Origin: a virus | Length of the DNA stretch: 64,000 nt | Strand: one strand, 5' to 3' | IMG/VR virus record: IMGVR_UViG_3300000115_000005 | Shown: positions 6,215 to 30,714 of the stretch, one piece after another | How positions within the stretch are numbered: position 1 is the first letter of the stretch | How the letters are laid out: the number at the start of each line of letters is the position of its first letter | The notes under the pieces: model-generated | Databases searched by the model: none | What the model was told of the DNA's origin: nothing | Seen by the model: the letters and a program-made list of their open reading frames with translations, nothing else | Translations under genes and position numbers: made by a program

Positions 6215-7303
6215 CTATCCTTTTATATATTGTTTAAATTTAACCAGTTGTCCTGGTGTCATTCTCTTATAATTTTTTACTACTTTATCCGTGCCCTCTT
6301 CTCCAGCTCCGTATTCTTCTTCAACACTACCTTTTTTATAATATGGATTTTTTGGGTTAGCATCTTCACTTTCATCTGGCCACCAATCATTAGTGTAAGT
6401 TTTACCAGATTCATTCATCTTAATCATGTCTTTTATTCTTTTTTCATATTCATCTTTACTAGGTTTCACCCTCTTTGCAACAACATCAAGAACATAATTA
6501 AGTGTTACTGCATTTGCTGTAAGTGAACCACATCTAGCACCAACTTGATTTTTTAGAAAGTCAATTAAAATACTTTCACTACTATTTGCCAAAGGGTCAG
6601 CTAAATCATGTGGCACTTTTAAGTCAACATAACTATACACGAAATCATAGTGTGGTGCAGGTGATCCATGTAAGATGTATTCATCTTTTACAACTATTCT
6701 TTGAAAGCCATCTTTTGCATACCAAACAGCTCTATGATCTGTAAGTTCATCTGGTTGACCAAAAGTTTTTGTTAAATGTTTTGTGTACTTTACTGGTTCT
6801 TCATTTTTCCAGTTTTCTAATGGTGAATTTTTCATTTCGTTTACGCTCTTGTGTAGTTTAACTCCTGTAACATTATGAATCAAATCACGAAATTCTTTAT
6901 GATTTTTATTTTTAATATGTGAATTCAATTTTCTTTTTTGGTTAGGTGTAGCTTTTGAATGAAACTTCACTAACTCCATAACTCCAAGATTACCAGAATA
7001 TGCAGCTTCATTCATTTTCTTTGTTTTCTTTTTCATAACATTAATAAAACTACGATACACAGCGGCTGCACCTGTTTTACCCATTACTCTAGCTCTTTGT
7101 TCCATAGCTATCGCTGCTTGAATCTTATGGGCGTGTGATCGTCCGCTTGACTTAATTTTTCGTACTGAAGCTTCTGCATCAGACTTACTTGCGAATTTGA
7201 GCCCGTGAATGGTTCCTTTCGGATCCTCGTCTGTGTAGAGGTCTGAGTGCTTTTTAGATTTTGCTGGTTGACCCGATTTTCTTGAGATTCTTGGATTACT
7301 CAT
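6215..7303 (-). CDS. Modular hypothetical protein, probably a head-packaged polyprotein
   Basis: Basic N-terminal module HSDLYTDEDPKGTIHGLKF; modules joined by MNE/VNE/VEE; C-terminal YGAGEEGTDKVVKNYKRMTPGQ. Confidence 0.5.
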   Translation of the reverse strand: MSNPRISRKSGQPAKSKKHSDLYTDEDPKGTIHGLKFASKSDAEASVRKIKSSGRSHAHKIQAAIAMEQRARVMGKTGAAAVYRSFINVMKKKTKKMNEAAYSGNLGVMELVKFHSKATPNQKRKLNSHIKNKNHKEFRDLIHNVTGVKLHKSVNEMKNSPLENWKNEEPVKYTKHLTKTFGQPDELTDHRAVWYAKDGFQRIVVKDEYILHGSPAPHYDFVYSYVDLKVPHDLADPLANSSESILIDFLKNQVGARCGSLTANAVTLNYVLDVVAKRVKPSKDEYEKRIKDMIKMNESGKTYTNDWWPDESEDANPKNPYYKKGSVEEEYGAGEEGTDKVVKNYKRMTPGQLVKFKQYIKG

Positions 7304-8827: not shown

Positions 8828-9915
8828 TTTTTTACACCTGCGTATTGTAACTTTAACATAACTAGTTTACCTAGTTTACCTTTTGGACTACTTCTTCTAA
8901 AACCTGCATCACTCCTGGTTGTCATTTTAAGAGTGAGTTTTTTATTTGCTTTATCCATTAAATCAATAAACCACTCTTGAACAGAATTTTTATTCAAATA
9001 AGCTTTAACTTTAGTAACTTTATCTATAAAATTAACTAATGGGTCGCCTTTTTCTTCAGCTTTTGCACCAACAGCTTTAACTAAAATTAAAGGTATCTCA
9101 CCTTTTTGTGGAGCTTTTTGTAATCTAAATTCAGTCATAATCCATTCTTTGGTAGTTTTTACATCTTTATTTACTATTTTTACTAATTGTTCTCTGCTTA
9201 TTTTATTTTGTTCAATATATAATTCGTCAAATTTTCTAAGATTATTTTCATATAATTTGATTAAAGATTCTTTAAGAGTATCATTCATTTTTATACTCTT
9301 ACCTCTATATTCATAATAATTTTTTTCAGTAACACTTTTTGGAGCACCAACTTTTGAGTAAACATTTTCCCAAAGTCTTTTTTTTAATTTATCTTCTGCT
9401 TTAGAATCTATTTTTTCATAGTAAGGCTGTTTTAAAGTTGTTCTAACATATGTATTTAATAAAGGTTCAGCTGATTTTTCTGTTCCAGCTTTTAAACTAA
9501 TACCACTAATTGAGCTATCTTTAAACATAAAAAAAATATCACCGGGATGATTAGATGGCACACCTTTTGGTTTAATTCTATAACCCCAAAAAACATTTTT
9601 TATTGGATTTGAGTCGTTTGTTTCATAGATATAATTTGTAATAGCAAAAGCATTATCTAATTTTTCCTTTAACAATCTAGGTTGTATTCTACTAAACGCA
9701 TCTAATATAAATTTTTCAGCATTTGGTACATCACCCGGTGTGGTAAAACTTTTTTTAGATTTAGTGCTAGATAGATTTACAGTCTTAATAAATTCACCTA
9801 AATCCTCACCATTTTTCGGTTTAAACCCATTATTAAAAGCTAAAGCTGGGAATAATTCCGTAATCGTAGAATTTATTGTAGTCTGTTGACCGCCTGTTAA
9901 ATATTTTGCCATCAT
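8824..9915 (-). CDS. PD-(D/E)xK restriction-endonuclease-like protein
   Basis: HPGDIFF...ISGISLKAG catalytic-core pattern, with an upstream helix Glu (ITE). Confidence 0.5.
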   Translation of the reverse strand: MMAKYLTGGQQTTINSTITELFPALAFNNGFKPKNGEDLGEFIKTVNLSSTKSKKSFTTPGDVPNAEKFILDAFSRIQPRLLKEKLDNAFAITNYIYETNDSNPIKNVFWGYRIKPKGVPSNHPGDIFFMFKDSSISGISLKAGTEKSAEPLLNTYVRTTLKQPYYEKIDSKAEDKLKKRLWENVYSKVGAPKSVTEKNYYEYRGKSIKMNDTLKESLIKLYENNLRKFDELYIEQNKISREQLVKIVNKDVKTTKEWIMTEFRLQKAPQKGEIPLILVKAVGAKAEEKGDPLVNFIDKVTKVKAYLNKNSVQEWFIDLMDKANKKLTLKMTTRSDAGFRRSSPKGKLGKLVMLKLQYAGVKK

Positions 9916-9933: not shown

Positions 9934-11052
9934 TTATCGAATTATGTCAATCTCTTTATCACCTGTCCATACTTCTAAGTCTTTTCTGAGTCTTTTGTCG
10001 TTTTTAAGAGACATATATCTGCTTGAGGCCTTCTTGACCCACCATTTAAATATATTCTCCAGATAGTGTTTATCGTGGTTATCCTTGTCTGGAATCAACT
10101 TATCTGTCTTACCAGTCACTACATCAACAAAGTTTGAGAAACCATAATTACAAGCGTAATATCGTTTCTTTTCAGTTAAATTAAGAGCTTTATTGATTGT
10201 TTTATTATATCTTTCCAAATCCTCACCATCTAAATTAGCCTTGATAAGAGCCTGTATTTTTGTAGATATTTTAAGTTTTCTTGATGAGGCATCTTCTGGT
10301 ACTATCGGTTCACCAACAGCTTTTTCCATATAATCTCTTAAATCTTCATATGGTTTGCCGTGCATCAACGGTAAAAAATTAGAATCTGTAAGACCTTTAA
10401 ATCGTAAAAATGGCTTCATGCCATCATACTGTGAACTAGACTTTGATGAACCATACAAACTGGTCGTTTCAAATAAACAAGTATTCATACCTGGATATTT
10501 TGTATTCATTCTTTCACGAACAAAGTGTGAACAACAAATACCAGCCAATAATTTACCACCAAGGTAATTAAAACCAAATGGTTGTGATGGCACAATTGCA
10601 AAACCCATAATTGATGTTTTATTAAATGATACTGCTGTTTTAGCATCTTGTGTAAAAACACAATCTAATAGTTGATTTCTTGGTTTCATATTAATTACAG
10701 GAGAACCAATACGAATAAAACCAAGCCACTTTTTACTATTCGTTTCTAATACACCTAATCGTAATGATTTTCCTGGAATACTTGTCATATTGGAATGAGA
10801 TGAAATAATTTTAACATAAATGTCCCACATATTTTGGTTCATTTCATGTATTTCTATATTCATATCTTCTGGGTGCATATCAAAGTTATCAAATAAATCT
10901 ATTTCAGGTCCCATTCCTGGTAATCCAAAGGACATTTTTTCAACTGTACTTACTTTTTGATCACGAATATAATCTGCAATACCATCAAATTTATCAAAGT
11001 AATCTGAGAATACTTTGGCACCGTGTATAGCTTGTTCTTTAGTTATTTTCAT
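9934..11052 (-). CDS. DUF4338/DruA-like protein, copy 1
   Basis: IVPSQPFGFNYLGGKLLA and ETTSLYG..SSQYD motifs, shared with 29431-30714. Confidence 0.6.
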   Translation of the reverse strand: MKITKEQAIHGAKVFSDYFDKFDGIADYIRDQKVSTVEKMSFGLPGMGPEIDLFDNFDMHPEDMNIEIHEMNQNMWDIYVKIISSHSNMTSIPGKSLRLGVLETNSKKWLGFIRIGSPVINMKPRNQLLDCVFTQDAKTAVSFNKTSIMGFAIVPSQPFGFNYLGGKLLAGICCSHFVRERMNTKYPGMNTCLFETTSLYGSSKSSSQYDGMKPFLRFKGLTDSNFLPLMHGKPYEDLRDYMEKAVGEPIVPEDASSRKLKISTKIQALIKANLDGEDLERYNKTINKALNLTEKKRYYACNYGFSNFVDVVTGKTDKLIPDKDNHDKHYLENIFKWWVKKASSRYMSLKNDKRLRKDLEVWTGDKEIDIIR

Positions 11053-20211: not shown

Positions 20212-20706
20212 CTAAGCTGCTTTAGATTCTTGTAAAAGTTCAGGTTTAAGTAAATTGAGACTATTACTAATTTCAACTTTTCTTGGTTTTTTATGATCTG
20301 GTATAACATTCTCTAAACCAACTCTTAAAATACCATCCTTAAACTCAGCACCTTTTACTTCTAGAGTATCAGCTACAGATAGGGTTTTTGTGAATGAGCG
20401 TGTACCTATACCTTTGTGTAAATATGAAACACTCTCAACTTCTTTTTCAATCTTTTCACCTCTAATAACTAAAGAGTTATCCTCTACTGTTATTTCAACT
20501 TCTTCTTTACTAAAGCCAGCAATAGCTAATTCAACAATATAATTGTTTTCATTAACCATTAATATATTATGTGGCGGAAAAGTTGAAGATGTTTTATTAT
20601 TTAAGATTCTTTCGACATCCTTAAATACTCTTTCAAAACCTAAAGTAGAGTGAGCTAATAGAGCTCTTTCTAGACCTTTAAAATGACCGGTTGTAATATC
20701 TACCAT
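20212..20706 (-). CDS. hsp20: Small heat-shock protein
   Basis: FPPHNI, ELAIAGF, YLHKGIGTRSF, AEFKDGIL, IPDHKKPR. Confidence 0.95.
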   Translation of the reverse strand: MVDITTGHFKGLERALLAHSTLGFERVFKDVERILNNKTSSTFPPHNILMVNENNYIVELAIAGFSKEEVEITVEDNSLVIRGEKIEKEVESVSYLHKGIGTRSFTKTLSVADTLEVKGAEFKDGILRVGLENVIPDHKKPRKVEISNSLNLLKPELLQESKAA

Positions 20707-20766
20707 TTTTAATTCTCCTTAAAATAAGCAAGTTAAACAATTGTGACCCTTTTTAGGCATCACTAA

Positions 20767-26855: not shown

Positions 26856-26872
26856 TGTTGCATTTTTACAAC
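26856..26872. promoter_or_regulatory. Palindromic operator-like site GTTG-N8-CAAC
   Basis: TGTTGCATTTTTACAAC just upstream of the -35; a second copy is at 29318-29337. Confidence 0.5.
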
Positions 26873-29247
26873 TTTACCGCAATTTTTTCTATAAATTTTG
26901 TTGCTAGTATGCGATTTACTGATCTAGTTCTATTCATTTTAGTGAATTGACTAGCAAGGCTTCTTGTATTGATACTCTTTTTATTATTAACCTCAAACTC
27001 AAACTCTTCATCATCAGTAGTAAGCTTATTACTATCATTTAGAATATAAAACTGATCAAAGCCTTTGTTATTTGATTCTATAAACTTTTGCTTTCTAGCT
27101 ATTTTCTTAACCGCTTCTTTCTCTTCCCAAGGAGCTCTATAAAAATTTACGTTTTTAGAATCTTTAGGAACATATCTATAATTAATTGCATCTGACATTT
27201 TAGTTGAAACAAAGAAACCGAAAACTTGTGTATCAGTCTTAGCTTTGAGCCATATTAATAAATCATTTGTAATATTATTATTTCGATCATTTGTTACAAC
27301 ACTTGAAAAACGAACTTTTTTATCTTGTATAACAAAGTTGTAGTCTGAATTTCTCGTACCAATAGTACGCCAATGTGCCTTTAATGTATGCTTATCACCA
27401 ACTACTTCTGGATCATACCAAGTATTATATGATTGACTCCAATTAGAATCACCATCATGTACAAAAATAGTATTTACAATATCTAAATTGTTCTTTTGTC
27501 TAAACTCTGGTATAATTGTACCAAGAGCTACGATAGCCTCATTCAATGGTGTACTACTTAAACCTAATTCCTCTGGTATTAAACCATAACCAACATTAAG
27601 AGTGCTGTAATTGTAACTTGACTTACCTAATAACAAATTCTCAAGTGCATTTTTATATGCAGCTGCACCCATATCAGAATTAATAAATTCTCTTAATGCC
27701 CAATCATCATCAAGAGCAAGTGATCCTTCAGTTACATACCATTTATCAGTTAGTTTAACGCTTTCTGAATAATCTTCATAGCTACTTTTTATAGGTCTAG
27801 AGGTGAAACCAAAAACTCTAAATGGTATTTGAACTTTCTTACAAAAAGCAGTAAGAATAGCAATTTGCTCAATTGAACCGGCCATGTTGCGATCCATAGA
27901 GCCTGATAAATCAAGAACTAGAATCATACCATGATTTTTACCTTTTGGTAATTTTGTCAACTTACGAAAAATTTGATCGTCAAACTTATACTTGTAAATC
28001 TTATTAACATCAATATCACCAGAGGTATATAATCTAGCCTTGGCATATTTTGTAGCGGCTTTTTTCATTTCAAAATCTTTAGCCATCAATGAAATAAAAC
28101 GATCATTTTTCTTCTTAAACTCATTTAAAACATGGCTACGACTAAAAAGTTTTTTAGCCTCAGAAACCTCAATAAGATTTCTTTTAATATTGAAGTGCCA
28201 AAAACCATCGCCTCTAGTTGCTATTTCATCATAGAATTTTGTCATACCTTTATTCACCGTTACAGTATCTTCTAAAATTCTTTCTAAGCGTGGCTTTGGT
28301 ATGTCAATATAAATATTGTCTTTAGAAGATTCGCTAAGTAATTGACTTTCATTTTCTCTAAATGATTCATCAGTTTCGCAAGTTGGCTCATGTTTTTCAT
28401 GACCATCAACAGCGCCATGAGGCGAAACTCCTTGATCTTCTGAATCTTTTTCATTCTCTTCTTCTGATTCATCTTCCTCTTCAAGCTTGAAATTACTATC
28501 AGATGATACTTTAGAATCCTCATCTTCATCAGATTCATCAGATTCTATTTCTTCTTGTTCTGATTGATCTTCATTATCCGAATCATCATTAGGAGAAAAA
28601 CCGGTTTGATCAGATTTACCAGTCGGATCTTCAACATACAAATCTTCTATATCAGTATAATCAAACATAGTAGTTTGATCTTGTTCCTGTTCCTCTACTG
28701 CCTGATCCCACAATCTATCTGTCATAGCAATAACATCTTCCCATGATTCTAGTTTTTTAATTTCATCAATAATTAAGGACTCTTCATTAGAGAATTGAAT
28801 AGGCATAGAATATGAACTCTTTGTGAAAAGATTAATTCTATCAATAAAGCTTAACTCATTTATTTCTTCAATATCTTGAATACCAAATAAGTCCATATCT
28901 AAAAGTTCATTAAAACCTTTGATGTAAGATTTTACAAGACCTGGATATCTTCTTTTAATTCTTTTTTCAATACGAGCATCTTCAATAACATTAAGAAAGT
29001 TCTTATAGTTTCTGCCATTTTTAGATACAGCACCATGCCAACCATCAGCCGGAGTATTTAAAGCATGACCAACTTCATGACTCATTAATAAATCATAAAG
29101 TTCTGGACTCATATCTTTCCAGATAGGGCAAGTAAGAACTCTTGTTGTAGGATTGAATGAAGCTGTTTGTACTTTTTTATGTTGTATTACAACATTTTCA
29201 GTAGCAAGTAACTTCGCTAATTGTGATTTCTGTTCAACTAATGACAT
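26866..29247 (-). CDS. CobT-like protein: N-terminal HExxH metallopeptidase-like domain, acidic linker, vWA domain
   Basis: SHEVGHAL, NVIEDARIE, D/E-rich linker, LDLSGSM (MIDAS), STPLNE, HDGD. Confidence 0.85.
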   Translation of the reverse strand: MSLVEQKSQLAKLLATENVVIQHKKVQTASFNPTTRVLTCPIWKDMSPELYDLLMSHEVGHALNTPADGWHGAVSKNGRNYKNFLNVIEDARIEKRIKRRYPGLVKSYIKGFNELLDMDLFGIQDIEEINELSFIDRINLFTKSSYSMPIQFSNEESLIIDEIKKLESWEDVIAMTDRLWDQAVEEQEQDQTTMFDYTDIEDLYVEDPTGKSDQTGFSPNDDSDNEDQSEQEEIESDESDEDEDSKVSSDSNFKLEEEDESEEENEKDSEDQGVSPHGAVDGHEKHEPTCETDESFRENESQLLSESSKDNIYIDIPKPRLERILEDTVTVNKGMTKFYDEIATRGDGFWHFNIKRNLIEVSEAKKLFSRSHVLNEFKKKNDRFISLMAKDFEMKKAATKYAKARLYTSGDIDVNKIYKYKFDDQIFRKLTKLPKGKNHGMILVLDLSGSMDRNMAGSIEQIAILTAFCKKVQIPFRVFGFTSRPIKSSYEDYSESVKLTDKWYVTEGSLALDDDWALREFINSDMGAAAYKNALENLLLGKSSYNYSTLNVGYGLIPEELGLSSTPLNEAIVALGTIIPEFRQKNNLDIVNTIFVHDGDSNWSQSYNTWYDPEVVGDKHTLKAHWRTIGTRNSDYNFVIQDKKVRFSSVVTNDRNNNITNDLLIWLKAKTDTQVFGFFVSTKMSDAINYRYVPKDSKNVNFYRAPWEEKEAVKKIARKQKFIESNNKGFDQFYILNDSNKLTTDDEEFEFEVNNKKSINTRSLASQFTKMNRTRSVNRILATKFIEKIAVKL

Positions 29248-29279
29248 AAAACTCCCTAATAATTAACTCTATGTCTACC

Positions 29280-29308
29280 ATCCTAGAGGAAGGCTGCTCA
29301 ACTGTCAA
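29280..29308 (-). promoter_or_regulatory. Sigma70-type early promoter
   Basis: TTGACA-17 nt-TAGGAT followed by GGTA, as in the other two early promoters. Confidence 0.85.
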
Positions 29309-29317
29309 GCATTAATT

Positions 29318-29337
29318 TTGTTGTTAAAATACAACAA
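29318..29337. promoter_or_regulatory. Palindromic operator-like site TTGTTG-N8-CAACAA
   Basis: TTGTTGTTAAAATACAACAA upstream of the -35. Confidence 0.5.
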
Positions 29338-29340
29338 AGG

Positions 29341-29405
29341 TGGAGCGGTGTTGTGGAGTTGCACCACACTAATTACTGGGAGTAACTTGTCCTACGACCC
29401 ACCGC
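29341..29405 (-). tRNA. Non-canonical 65-nt tRNA-Gly(CCC)-like RNA with a reduced D arm
   Basis: GCGGTGG GTCGTAGGAC A AGTTA-CTCCCAG-TAATT AG TGTGG-TGCAACT-CCACA ACACCGC T CCA: acceptor stem, 7-nt anticodon loop with U33 and CCC, T arm, U73 and encoded CCA. Confidence 0.75.
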
Positions 29406-29430
29406 AAATTATGTATATACTATAACATAA

Positions 29431-30714
29431 CTATCTGCCAATTTGGGGCAAATATGAATCTTTTGTTTCATTCCATGATTTATATATTAAATCGTCATAA
29501 AATAAACTTTCTTTCGATTCTCTACCTTTTTTGACCAATTGTTTAATTCTAGGTTTTGCATACTTGTATTTCCAAAGCTCTGATAGTGACTCTGTGGAAT
29601 TATCAAATGCCTTTGTCAAATCATTTATTTCAGCTTCACCTCTCAAGTATGCACAGCTTTTATCATATAAGGGGCAAAAGTAAACACCTCTTGCGTGATC
29701 AGATTTCATTATTTCTTTTGGTATATTACCTAATTTACTATATGTGAAAGCATACGATCTATGCCTATGATCTCTTTTTAATTGTTGACCATTTGGTCTT
29801 TTGGCAACATACCATTCAAAATATTTTCGTGGGTGGTTTTTCATCAACCAATGTCTAATTTGATATATTGTTTTCTTTGTTGGTTCATATGAAACAGAAC
29901 CACTTGTAAAGCCCATTGGCTTCCAATATTTTAAATTATCATATTGTGATAGACCACCTTTTTTTGTTTTACCATAAAGTGATGTTGTTGTTACACTTAC
30001 TAAATCATCACCATAATTTTTCTTCCATTGTGATTGTACCTGTTCTGATAAACAAAGTAAAGCTAATAGTTTACCACCAACATAATTAAAACCAAGAGGT
30101 TGTAATGGTACAATCGTAGAACCTATTGCTGTATGATTTAACATACCACTTTCTGTTTTGTAATTACGATCCCAACCAATAAATTTATCTCTTGGTGTTA
30201 AGTCAATAAAATCACCTGTAATGCAAATAACACCAAGATATTTTTTAGTTTTTTTATCACGAATAATATAAGCTAAATTACGGCCTATATTGGAGTTGTT
30301 TCTCATTGTAGATGTAAAAGTTCTAATAGCATTCCATATTTCTGGCATACCATCTTTACCACCTGTATAAATCATTTCAGGTTCTAACTCTAGGTAATCT
30401 TCATTTGTTTTTGGTTGCCAAATATTATTTTTAACCTCTGCTAAAGCTTTTCTTTGTTTCTCATCTTTTAATACTTGTCGTTCACCCTCCCACAAATCGT
30501 TTACTGTGATTGTTGGGTATCTTTGTTTTACTTCACAAAACTTTTGATATAGTGTATATTCTCTTACGTCCATTTGAGAAACATAAGATAAATCTGTTAC
30601 AATGTTTTCTTTCAAATCTGAATCTGATATATCATCAAATACTATTTCAGACTCACTCCACTTTTTCCATTGTGTTTCTACATCATCTTTTACATCATAT
30701 TTGTATGTACTCAT
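29431..30714 (-). CDS. DUF4338/DruA-like protein, copy 2 (putative GNAT/Mom-like transferase)
   Basis: IGRNL..IIRD, LTPRDKFIGW, IVPLQPLGFNYVGGKLLAL, TTTSLYG, SQYD, GFTSG, HARGVY. Confidence 0.65.
   Translation of the reverse strand: MSTYKYDVKDDVETQWKKWSESEIVFDDISDSDLKENIVTDLSYVSQMDVREYTLYQKFCEVKQRYPTITVNDLWEGERQVLKDEKQRKALAEVKNNIWQPKTNEDYLELEPEMIYTGGKDGMPEIWNAIRTFTSTMRNNSNIGRNLAYIIRDKKTKKYLGVICITGDFIDLTPRDKFIGWDRNYKTESGMLNHTAIGSTIVPLQPLGFNYVGGKLLALLCLSEQVQSQWKKNYGDDLVSVTTTSLYGKTKKGGLSQYDNLKYWKPMGFTSGSVSYEPTKKTIYQIRHWLMKNHPRKYFEWYVAKRPNGQQLKRDHRHRSYAFTYSKLGNIPKEIMKSDHARGVYFCPLYDKSCAYLRGEAEINDLTKAFDNSTESLSELWKYKYAKPRIKQLVKKGRESKESLFYDDLIYKSWNETKDSYLPQIGR

Follow-up and report, generated by a model that had tools for sequence, protein, structure and literature searches.

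The locus considered here raises the question of what a phage does with a miniature, tRNA-like RNA that is encoded directly behind a gene for a protein of the DUF4338/DruA family. Both genes lie in a 64,000-nt stretch of viral DNA (here called the window) taken from the IMG/VR virus record IMGVR_UViG_3300000115_000005, which comprises 103 kb and is about 57% complete. Its relatives include two SAR11 myophages of the Kyanoviridae, HTVC008M and Mosig, in which the DUF4338 homologs show 55–58% identity. An earlier note made from the letters of the window had proposed that the RNA is charged with glycine by the host glycyl-tRNA synthetase (GlyRS) and then serves the adjacent enzyme as a glycyl donor, and we followed up this proposal by computational analysis. 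The two features concerned are:

29341..29405, minus strand: reduced tRNA-Gly-like RNA of 65 nt (the mini RNA), recognized by its sequence, fold, covariance model and covariation counts

29431..30714, minus strand: 427-aa DUF4338/DruA-family protein, recognized by Pfam DruA, with a modelled GNAT-fold core at about residues 106–372

The first base of the mini RNA (G1) is at position 29405 and its 3' end at 29341, both on the minus strand, and a spacer of 25 nt separates it from the TAG stop codon of the DUF4338 open reading frame (ORF) at 29433–29431. Its acceptor stem (GCGGTGG/ACACCGC) contains 6 bp and a G7:A66 mismatch, the D arm is replaced by a 3-bp mini-hairpin (GTC-GTAG-GAC), and the middle hairpin with the loop CUCCCAG is followed by a 2-nt spacer. 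A T-like arm (TGTGG-TGCAACT-CCACA) with a 5-bp stem and the loop UGCAACU then leads to the 3' terminus, which consists of U73 and an encoded CCA. Isolated folding of the RNA resulted in a cloverleaf-like structure with the three hairpins as drawn here (minimum free energy −22 kcal/mol, z −2.1). Every feature that the earlier note had listed for this RNA was found in the sequence.

The mini RNA escapes the usual tools for tRNA detection. ARAGORN reported no tRNA gene in the window and none in the loci of 19 relatives, an Rfam cmscan of positions 29200–29500 (E ≤ 10) returned no tRNA match, and a search of the whole record with RF00005 (E ≤ 10) listed two other sites, with the mini RNA not among them. 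The sole Rfam match at the mini RNA was Tymo_tRNA-like, whose 13.4 bits against a gathering score of 40 are at chance level. A covariance model built from relatives (R1) recognized the window RNA with 76.3 bits (E 2.5e-16), and the window copy was the only match of this model in the 103-kb record. We rejected the identity of a canonical elongator tRNA because of the missed detection by ARAGORN and RF00005 and the departures in the D arm and the anticodon loop.

To collect relatives, a protein-guided scan of IMG/VR was performed, which yielded 51 loci with DUF4338 homologs of 60–96% identity. A mini RNA of 63–69 nt was present 3' of the DUF4338 gene in all 40 loci extending far enough past the gene, usually 20–60 nt behind the stop codon and in two lineages at a distance of 0.5–0.8 kb. 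We aligned 26 copies, built a covariance model from them and re-aligned all matches, and the following statistics refer to 25 distinct sequences. Standard pairs occupied 86.2% of the paired cells, compared to 69.2% in shuffled alignments, and the covariation score of 0.395 (0.106 shuffled) was reached by none of 500 shuffles. Changes at both sides were observed in 13 of 21 pairs (9.6 shuffled), compensatory changes occurred in all four helices, and sliding the 3' partners by 1–3 columns left pairing at only 38–52%. The T-like stem was 97.6% paired with compensatory changes in four of its five pairs, acceptor pair 5:68 was seen as U-A, A-U and G-C, and the third pair of the D stub as C-G, U-A and A-U. 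Acceptor pairs 1–5 were formed in every copy, and 6:67 and 7:66 were frequently mismatched. The RNA is conserved and covarying, which makes its case stronger than the earlier note had claimed, and we are highly confident that it represents a real, tRNA-Gly-derived, non-decoding small RNA gene.

The distribution of invariant positions within the family is informative about what has been kept. Invariant columns comprise G1, C2, G3 and G4 with their partners in the acceptor 3' strand, U73, the CCA end, and G8-U9 and the closing A-C of the mini-hairpin. The closing pair G53-C61 of the T-like arm is likewise invariant, the first base of its loop (T) and A58 are invariant or nearly so, and the only invariant part of the middle arm is a CC in the loop. 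The identity set of bacterial α2β2 GlyRS consists of G1-C72, C2-G71, C35, C36 and U73, with a purine at position 4 opposite a pyrimidine at position 69 being preferred (PMC10464925, PMC9976931). This set is invariant in all 25 distinct mini RNAs, with the loop CC numbered as 35–36 by analogy, and the identity elements which the earlier note had recognized in the single copy of the window coincide with these invariant positions. It had also pointed to missing features of elongator tRNAs, and this holds for the family: in place of a D arm, 3 bp close a loop of 3–5 nt that contains no GG (no G18-G19), and the T loop is devoid of U55-C56, starting with UGC or UGU in the clade of the window (TGCAACT, TGTAACT) and with TTT or AGC elsewhere. 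The middle arm folds into minimum free energy stems of 4–9 bp with loops of 3–6 nt, for which CCC, CCCC, CCCA, UCCCC, UACCC, UUCCC, CACCC and CUCCAA were observed; U33 is not conserved, and the base preceding CC is C, U or A. Because the middle arm is freely variable, most family members cannot decode. As judged from this pattern of conservation, selection kept the features read by GlyRS, the acceptor/T minihelix and CCA, and released the features read by the ribosome. With its charging identity separated from decoding in this way, the mini RNA would be a natural minimal GlyRS substrate.

Nevertheless, the mini RNA might still be a reduced translational tRNA-Gly that aids the decoding of GGG or GGA, similar to the D-armless mitochondrial tRNAs. 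The copy of the window can indeed be drawn with a canonical 7-nt loop (C32 U33 CCC A37 G38), providing U33, an anticodon CCC and A37, and some relatives carry their mini RNA among ordinary phage tRNAs, with which it shares the placement in tRNA clusters. This applies to a sister clade (L057, L067, L079, L088, L095, L108, L113, L119 and L171), whose contigs other than L088 and L108 are too short to show the position of the DUF4338 gene. In L067 and L108, a regular 74-nt tRNA-Gly(UCC) starts 1 nt after the mini RNA. Tandem pairs of mini RNAs, 3–6 nt apart, were found in L026, L028–L030, L037, L100 and L169. The first copy of such pairs has a GCGGTG acceptor and a CCC-type loop, and the second ("b") copy has a GCGGGA or GCGGAG acceptor, in some cases the E. 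coli-like GCGGGAA, and a UCC-containing loop, as would suit a translational role. HTVC008M contains no mini RNA and instead an aberrant 74-nt tRNA-Gly(ACC) that is not annotated:

91140–91213 of KC465899.1 (corresponding to L175 1501–1574), plus strand: tRNA-Gly(ACC)-like gene of HTVC008M, between CobS and S21, 4 kb downstream

Its 3-bp D stem (GTA/TAC) is combined with a non-canonical T loop, AGCGTTA. To our knowledge, the anticodon ACC is essentially unused in bacteria. HTVC008M and many other pelagimyophages have been listed with 0 tRNAs (PMC7029224).

Taken across the family, these data argue against translation. Most members have 3–6-nt loops on 6–9-bp stems without a conserved U33, position 34 varies between C, U and A while CC remains fixed, the HTVC008M version carries the anticodon ACC, and the T loop and D region are without U55-C56 and G18-G19, respectively. 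The low usage of GGG expected in the earlier note was also found, as this codon accounts for 38 of 1299 glycine codons (2.9%) in window ORFs of at least 150 aa. Moreover, the mini RNA and a normal tRNA-Gly(UCC) are direct neighbours in some phages, which indicates that the two are not redundant. We therefore regard a translational function as quite unlikely. Considering the placement in tRNA clusters, the neighbouring tRNA-Gly(UCC), the second copies and the tRNA-Gly(ACC) of HTVC008M, the family gives the impression of phage tRNA-Gly genes at successive stages of reduction, and the mini RNA of the window would descend from such a gene, with a variable middle hairpin that always presents CC in its loop. 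The mini RNA family is widespread, occurring in marine and freshwater phages with a relationship to SAR11 myophages, absent from Rfam, missed by tRNA finders and unannotated in published genomes, and our literature search found no earlier description of it.

The immediate surroundings of the mini RNA contain the following signals and the next gene downstream:

29419..29427, minus strand: extended −10 element TGTTATAGT, recognized by consensus match, 13 nt 5' of G1 and directly past the stop codon of the GNAT gene

29317..29338, minus strand: A/T-rich 8-bp hairpin, a likely 3' boundary or terminator, 2 nt past CCA

29280..29308, minus strand: sigma-70-type promoter (TTGACA-17-TAGGAT) of the gene for a 793-aa "peptidase", with 10/12 in the promoter scan and kept in relatives

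26866..29247, minus strand: gene for the 793-aa "peptidase" (phrog_459), recognized by PHROGs (E 1e-175) and by its syntenic position in HTVC008M and Mosig; a context gene that might be the partner instead

A −10 box (TATAAT, TATAGT or TAGAAT) precedes G1 (GCGG) by 9–13 nt in all lineages, frequently with an upstream TG, and several lineages (L023, L026, L088) have a complete TTGACA-17-(−10) promoter. On the 3' side, a GTTG...CAAC hairpin is kept at the same place in relatives, and the lineages L033–L036 and L048 show a canonical G+C hairpin with a T-run. From these signals, the mini RNA is an independent gene with its own predicted promoter and terminator. Four oligo-dT marine metatranscriptomes (contigs) matched small shares of the stretch, including pieces on the GNAT ORF with 90–97% identity; these contigs do not cover the mini RNA and are uninformative on its expression. 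A further terminator-like hairpin at 29432–29454 of the window (minus strand) overlaps the final DUF4338 codons and lies directly before the −10 box of the mini RNA. The two lineages with the larger distance carry an ORF-like insert of 0.5–0.8 kb on the reverse strand which splits the DUF4338 gene from the mini RNA (at about 4280–4820 in L016, L017, L019 and L044, and about 4280–5040 in L032), and their mini RNA still adjoins the peptidase promoter.

This last arrangement, exemplified by L016 and L032, would fit a regulatory or processing element, which may serve either as a tRNA-shaped punctuation mark for RNase P or RNase Z and a stabiliser separating transcription units, or as a small RNA whose C-rich loop pairs with a Shine-Dalgarno sequence. 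In the window, the loop sequence CUCCC could base-pair with GGGAG, the ribosome-binding site of the peptidase gene that follows. We rejected an anti-Shine-Dalgarno loop for the next gene because loop and Shine-Dalgarno sequence do not covary across relatives, where CCCC or CCCA loops face AGGA or CGGA. Such pairing would also leave the invariant G1–G4, U73, CCA and T loop unexplained. In addition, the mini RNA is preceded by a predicted promoter of its own, and in the clade with tRNA clusters a long distance separates it from either gene. A regulatory or processing role in general is therefore very unlikely in our estimation.

The second component of the locus is the DUF4338 protein. It matches the Pfam family DruA/DUF4338 (PF14236) over residues 125–359 with an E-value of 9e-17 (61.6 bits against a cut-off of 27). 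An AlphaFold2 model calculated with an alignment of 53 representative sequences reached a pLDDT of 94.4 and a pTM of 0.91 and consists of the GNAT core flanked by a helical/beta domain at the N-terminus and a helical domain at the C-terminus. Foldseek returned only weak matches (E ≥ 0.01), all of which were GNAT-fold proteins. A structure search of 48,161 representative chains ranked Mom of phage Mu (PDB 8bv8) first, with the longest alignment (186 residues, compared to about 145 for other GNATs). Its Z score of 9.7 is tied with the 9.0–9.2 of the other GNATs, and Mom is singled out by alignment length only. A protein-atlas search gave a sub-threshold lead (0.82) to the "GNAT-phage-like" cluster PF22559, and the DUF4338/DruA domain has been described as a GNAT domain (PMC10853773). 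On the basis of the model, DUF4338 is a GNAT fold, as the earlier note had assumed, and of the expected resemblance to Mom the first rank and the longest alignment were found, together with a tie in Z score and no relation by profiles. BLASTP gave no match between the 427-aa protein and Mom, two DUF4338-Mom profile-profile comparisons found no relation, and nothing meaningful was returned when PDB sequences were searched by phmmer and hmmsearch with the protein or its profile. In the 427-aa protein, Pfam recognized only DruA, and Mu Mom itself matched PF25680 at 2e-75. The lack of any sequence or profile match rules out membership of DUF4338 in the Mom family.

Mom is nevertheless the most instructive comparison. 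The product of Mu Mom (PF25680), a GNAT that depends on Gly-tRNAGly, is N6-carbamoylmethyl-adenine in dsDNA. According to Silva et al. (Nat Commun 2026; preprint 2023), the enzyme glycylates N6 of adenine in dsDNA with Gly-tRNAGly as the donor, and a rearrangement on the base ensues (PMC13219725), which bears out the donor named in the earlier note. All three tRNAGly isoacceptors of E. coli work as donors, Gly-tRNAAla fails, features of tRNAGly are thus required, and recognition of the tRNA at its acceptor end is the authors' speculation (PMC13219725). Mom is the only known tRNA-dependent DNA modification enzyme; it scavenges host tRNA, and no dedicated RNA is described for it (PMC13219725), whereas a candidate dedicated RNA is encoded adjacent to the DUF4338 gene. 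The DUF4338 protein further differs from Mom in having about twice its length, extra N- and C-terminal domains and no sequence or profile similarity, and its likeness to Mom, whose catalytic residues are R111, S124, D149 and R151, appears at the level of the modelled fold.

The closest parallel for the RNA is found in Staphylococcus aureus and S. epidermidis, where the non-proteogenic (NP) tRNAGly species NP1–3 feed the transferases FmhB, FemA and FemB and have kept charging by GlyRS and lost translation features. Fem transferases are placed in the GNAT superfamily (PMC13219725). Dedicated non-translational tRNAs have so far been reported only from staphylococci, and the T loop of the staphylococcal NP tRNAGly starts with TGC or TGT replacing TTC (PMC7826273). 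The same start is seen in the mini RNAs of the window clade, so the staphylococcal parallel drawn by the earlier note reaches down to the T loop. The NP tRNAs are, however, cell-encoded, have a full cloverleaf with a normal UCC anticodon arm and serve peptidoglycan synthesis, whereas the mini RNA is phage-encoded, has only 63–69 nt and contains a 3-bp D stub and a non-canonical middle arm. Plant-virus tRNA-like structures share the acceptor/T minihelix with CCA, but the mini RNA is a stand-alone gene and not part of a 3' UTR. With the staphylococcal NP tRNAGly and Mom, the concept has two precedents, and a mini RNA coupled to the GNAT would be a notable variation on it.

The best reading of the locus is, in our view, that the mini RNA is a dedicated glycyl donor for the adjacent DUF4338 GNAT, and we put this forward tentatively. 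Host GlyRS would load the mini RNA with glycine, and the charged RNA would probably be a poor translation substrate, excluded from the ribosome; it may evade EF-Tu, as the earlier note had suggested. Its glycine may then be reserved for a transferase that depends on tRNA, and the adjacent DUF4338 GNAT is the prime candidate for this enzyme. This enzyme would pass the glycine to an acceptor, as Mom does to adenine N6, and the acceptor may be phage DNA. The proposal draws on two lines of argument: GlyRS identity, minihelix and CCA are kept and decoding is abandoned, which is best explained by glycine charging for non-ribosomal use, and the adjacency, together with Mom as the nearest solved structure, makes the neighbouring GNAT the obvious candidate user.

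Several observations weigh against this proposal. A tRNAGly with a deleted D arm was a very poor substrate for the one enzyme tested, the α2β2 GlyRS of L. plantarum, which needs the L-shape (PMC10464925). Restriction systems are rare in SAR11 hosts (PMC7029224), so that an anti-restriction rationale loses weight. The lead of Mom over ordinary acetyl-CoA GNATs is less than 1 in Z score, and an hhalign comparison of the DUF4338 profile with a Mom profile built from 32 sequences gave a probability of 0.2%. The DUF4338 consensus also retains a Q-x-x-G motif (Q-P-x-G) where the CoA pyrophosphate loop is usually located, making an acyl-CoA donor possible. Regarding the linkage of RNA and gene, Mosig contains a DUF4338 gene and no Gly-like RNA was found in it; its tRNAs are only tRNA-Pro, tRNA-Arg and tRNA-Leu, and a weak RF00005 match at 93210–93268 was discarded as coding-like sequence. 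No mini RNA or tRNA was found within 4 kb of more distant DUF4338 genes (37–46% identity). Adjacency of RNA and gene is confined to one syntenic phage clade, amounting to roughly one evolutionary event, and it is lost in the sister clade, where the mini RNA is about 7 kb from the DUF4338 gene. Of the linkage which the earlier note had suggested for phage homologs, the part concerning the close relatives stood, with covarying stems in all 40 loci, and the part concerning distant homologs and Mosig did not.

The Q-x-x-G motif may alternatively point to the mini RNA as the substrate of the GNAT, with DUF4338 acylating either the carried amino acid in a TacT-like reaction or a loop cytidine in a TmcA-like reaction forming N4-acetylcytidine (ac4C). 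GNATs that modify tRNA in either of these ways are known (PMC13219725), and the loop of the mini RNA is C-rich. A benefit for the phage is not obvious, and the distant DUF4338 genes, the second paralog (see below) and the Mosig gene manage without such an RNA. We attribute only a very slight probability to this explanation.

The separation of RNA and gene bears on yet another explanation, namely that the mini RNA is a decoy or sponge, charged or with no more than its CCA end, which titrates a host factor acting on the acceptor ends of tRNA-Gly, for example a GNAT toxin of the TacT/AtaT2 type acetylating Gly-tRNAGly or another tRNA-directed defence, and that its adjacency to DUF4338 is accidental. 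The acceptor end with U73 and G71 is conserved, and exactly U73 and G71 are read by TacT (PMC9976931). The lost decoding features would suit a non-translational mimic, and mini RNAs are also found in tRNA clusters at a distance from DUF4338. Neither the T-loop architecture nor the invariant CC of the distal loop would be required in an acceptor-end decoy, however, and SAR11-type hosts have few defence systems (PMC7029224), none of which is known to be directed at tRNAGly. Starting from the RNA side by a pattern search followed by a covariance model, we found the DUF4338 gene adjacent in 24 loci and about 7 kb upstream in two (L088 and L108), and no informative contig carried a mini RNA without a DUF4338 gene. 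We therefore consider a decoy function unlikely and retain the glycyl donor as the preferred explanation.

The wider gene context was analyzed for further partners. The gene order SbcC-like gp46, peptide deformylase, DUF4338, 793-aa "peptidase" and CobS is common to the window, HTVC008M and Mosig, and a second DUF4338 gene is present in the window:

9934..11052, minus strand: 372-aa divergent DUF4338 paralog, recognized by Pfam DruA (E 2e-6, 27.6 bits), directly behind a gp41-like helicase

The paralog shares 33% identity with the 427-aa protein over 161 aa (E 1e-19) and is the counterpart of a "putative cytoplasmic protein" of T4-like cyanophages. In L187 and L188, which represent another phage type, both paralogs are arranged in tandem before DNA polymerase B, an arrangement that hints at a joint function. 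The predicted complex of the two proteins scored 0.00, a value that speaks neither way on binding. An extended version of the glycyl-donor proposal, a two-part system of pelagimyophage-type phages in which the carrier RNA and the DUF4338 GNAT, possibly with its paralog, glycylate phage DNA or another macromolecule, is conceivable but doubtful.

Since DruA of type I Druantia (PF14236) belongs to the same Pfam family as the 427-aa protein, the locus was also inspected for a Druantia system. The six neighbouring ORFs contained only peptide deformylase, AAA/SMC-type (SbcC-like) or CbbQ-type ATPase domains, or no domain, in Pfam searches. No helicase ORF of DruE size is located beside the 427-aa gene; models of DruB–E were not searched. 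The replication/early-region context typical of T4-like phages and the missing DruE-like helicase neighbour rule out a Druantia system.

Several other RNA features were noted. Positions 20701–20766 of the window (minus strand) match the Rfam RNA thermometer ROSE_3 with 45.6 bits, just above the gathering score of 43, and relatives carry a gene for a small heat-shock protein in this region. A sequence of 114 nt beyond the window (L186 1501–1614, corresponding to G000 9072–9185, minus strand) scores 30.5 bits with the tRNA model and ends in a normal-looking T arm, GGGGGTTCAAATCCCC. ARAGORN is silent on it, and it may represent a tRNA that is interrupted or degenerate. G000 also contains a normal tRNA-Pro(UGG), at 6940–7013.

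The DUF4338/DruA family occurs in the T4-like cyanophage and pelagiphage genomes searched and in Druantia, and our literature search found no published function of DruA. If the glycyl-donor proposal is true, DUF4338/DruA would be a second, sequence-unrelated family of tRNA-dependent GNATs, and DruA of Druantia type I may work with aminoacyl-tRNA as well. A mini RNA that feeds the GNAT would thus offer the first handle on the biochemistry of DUF4338/DruA and a pointer to an unknown modification in some of the ocean's most abundant viruses.

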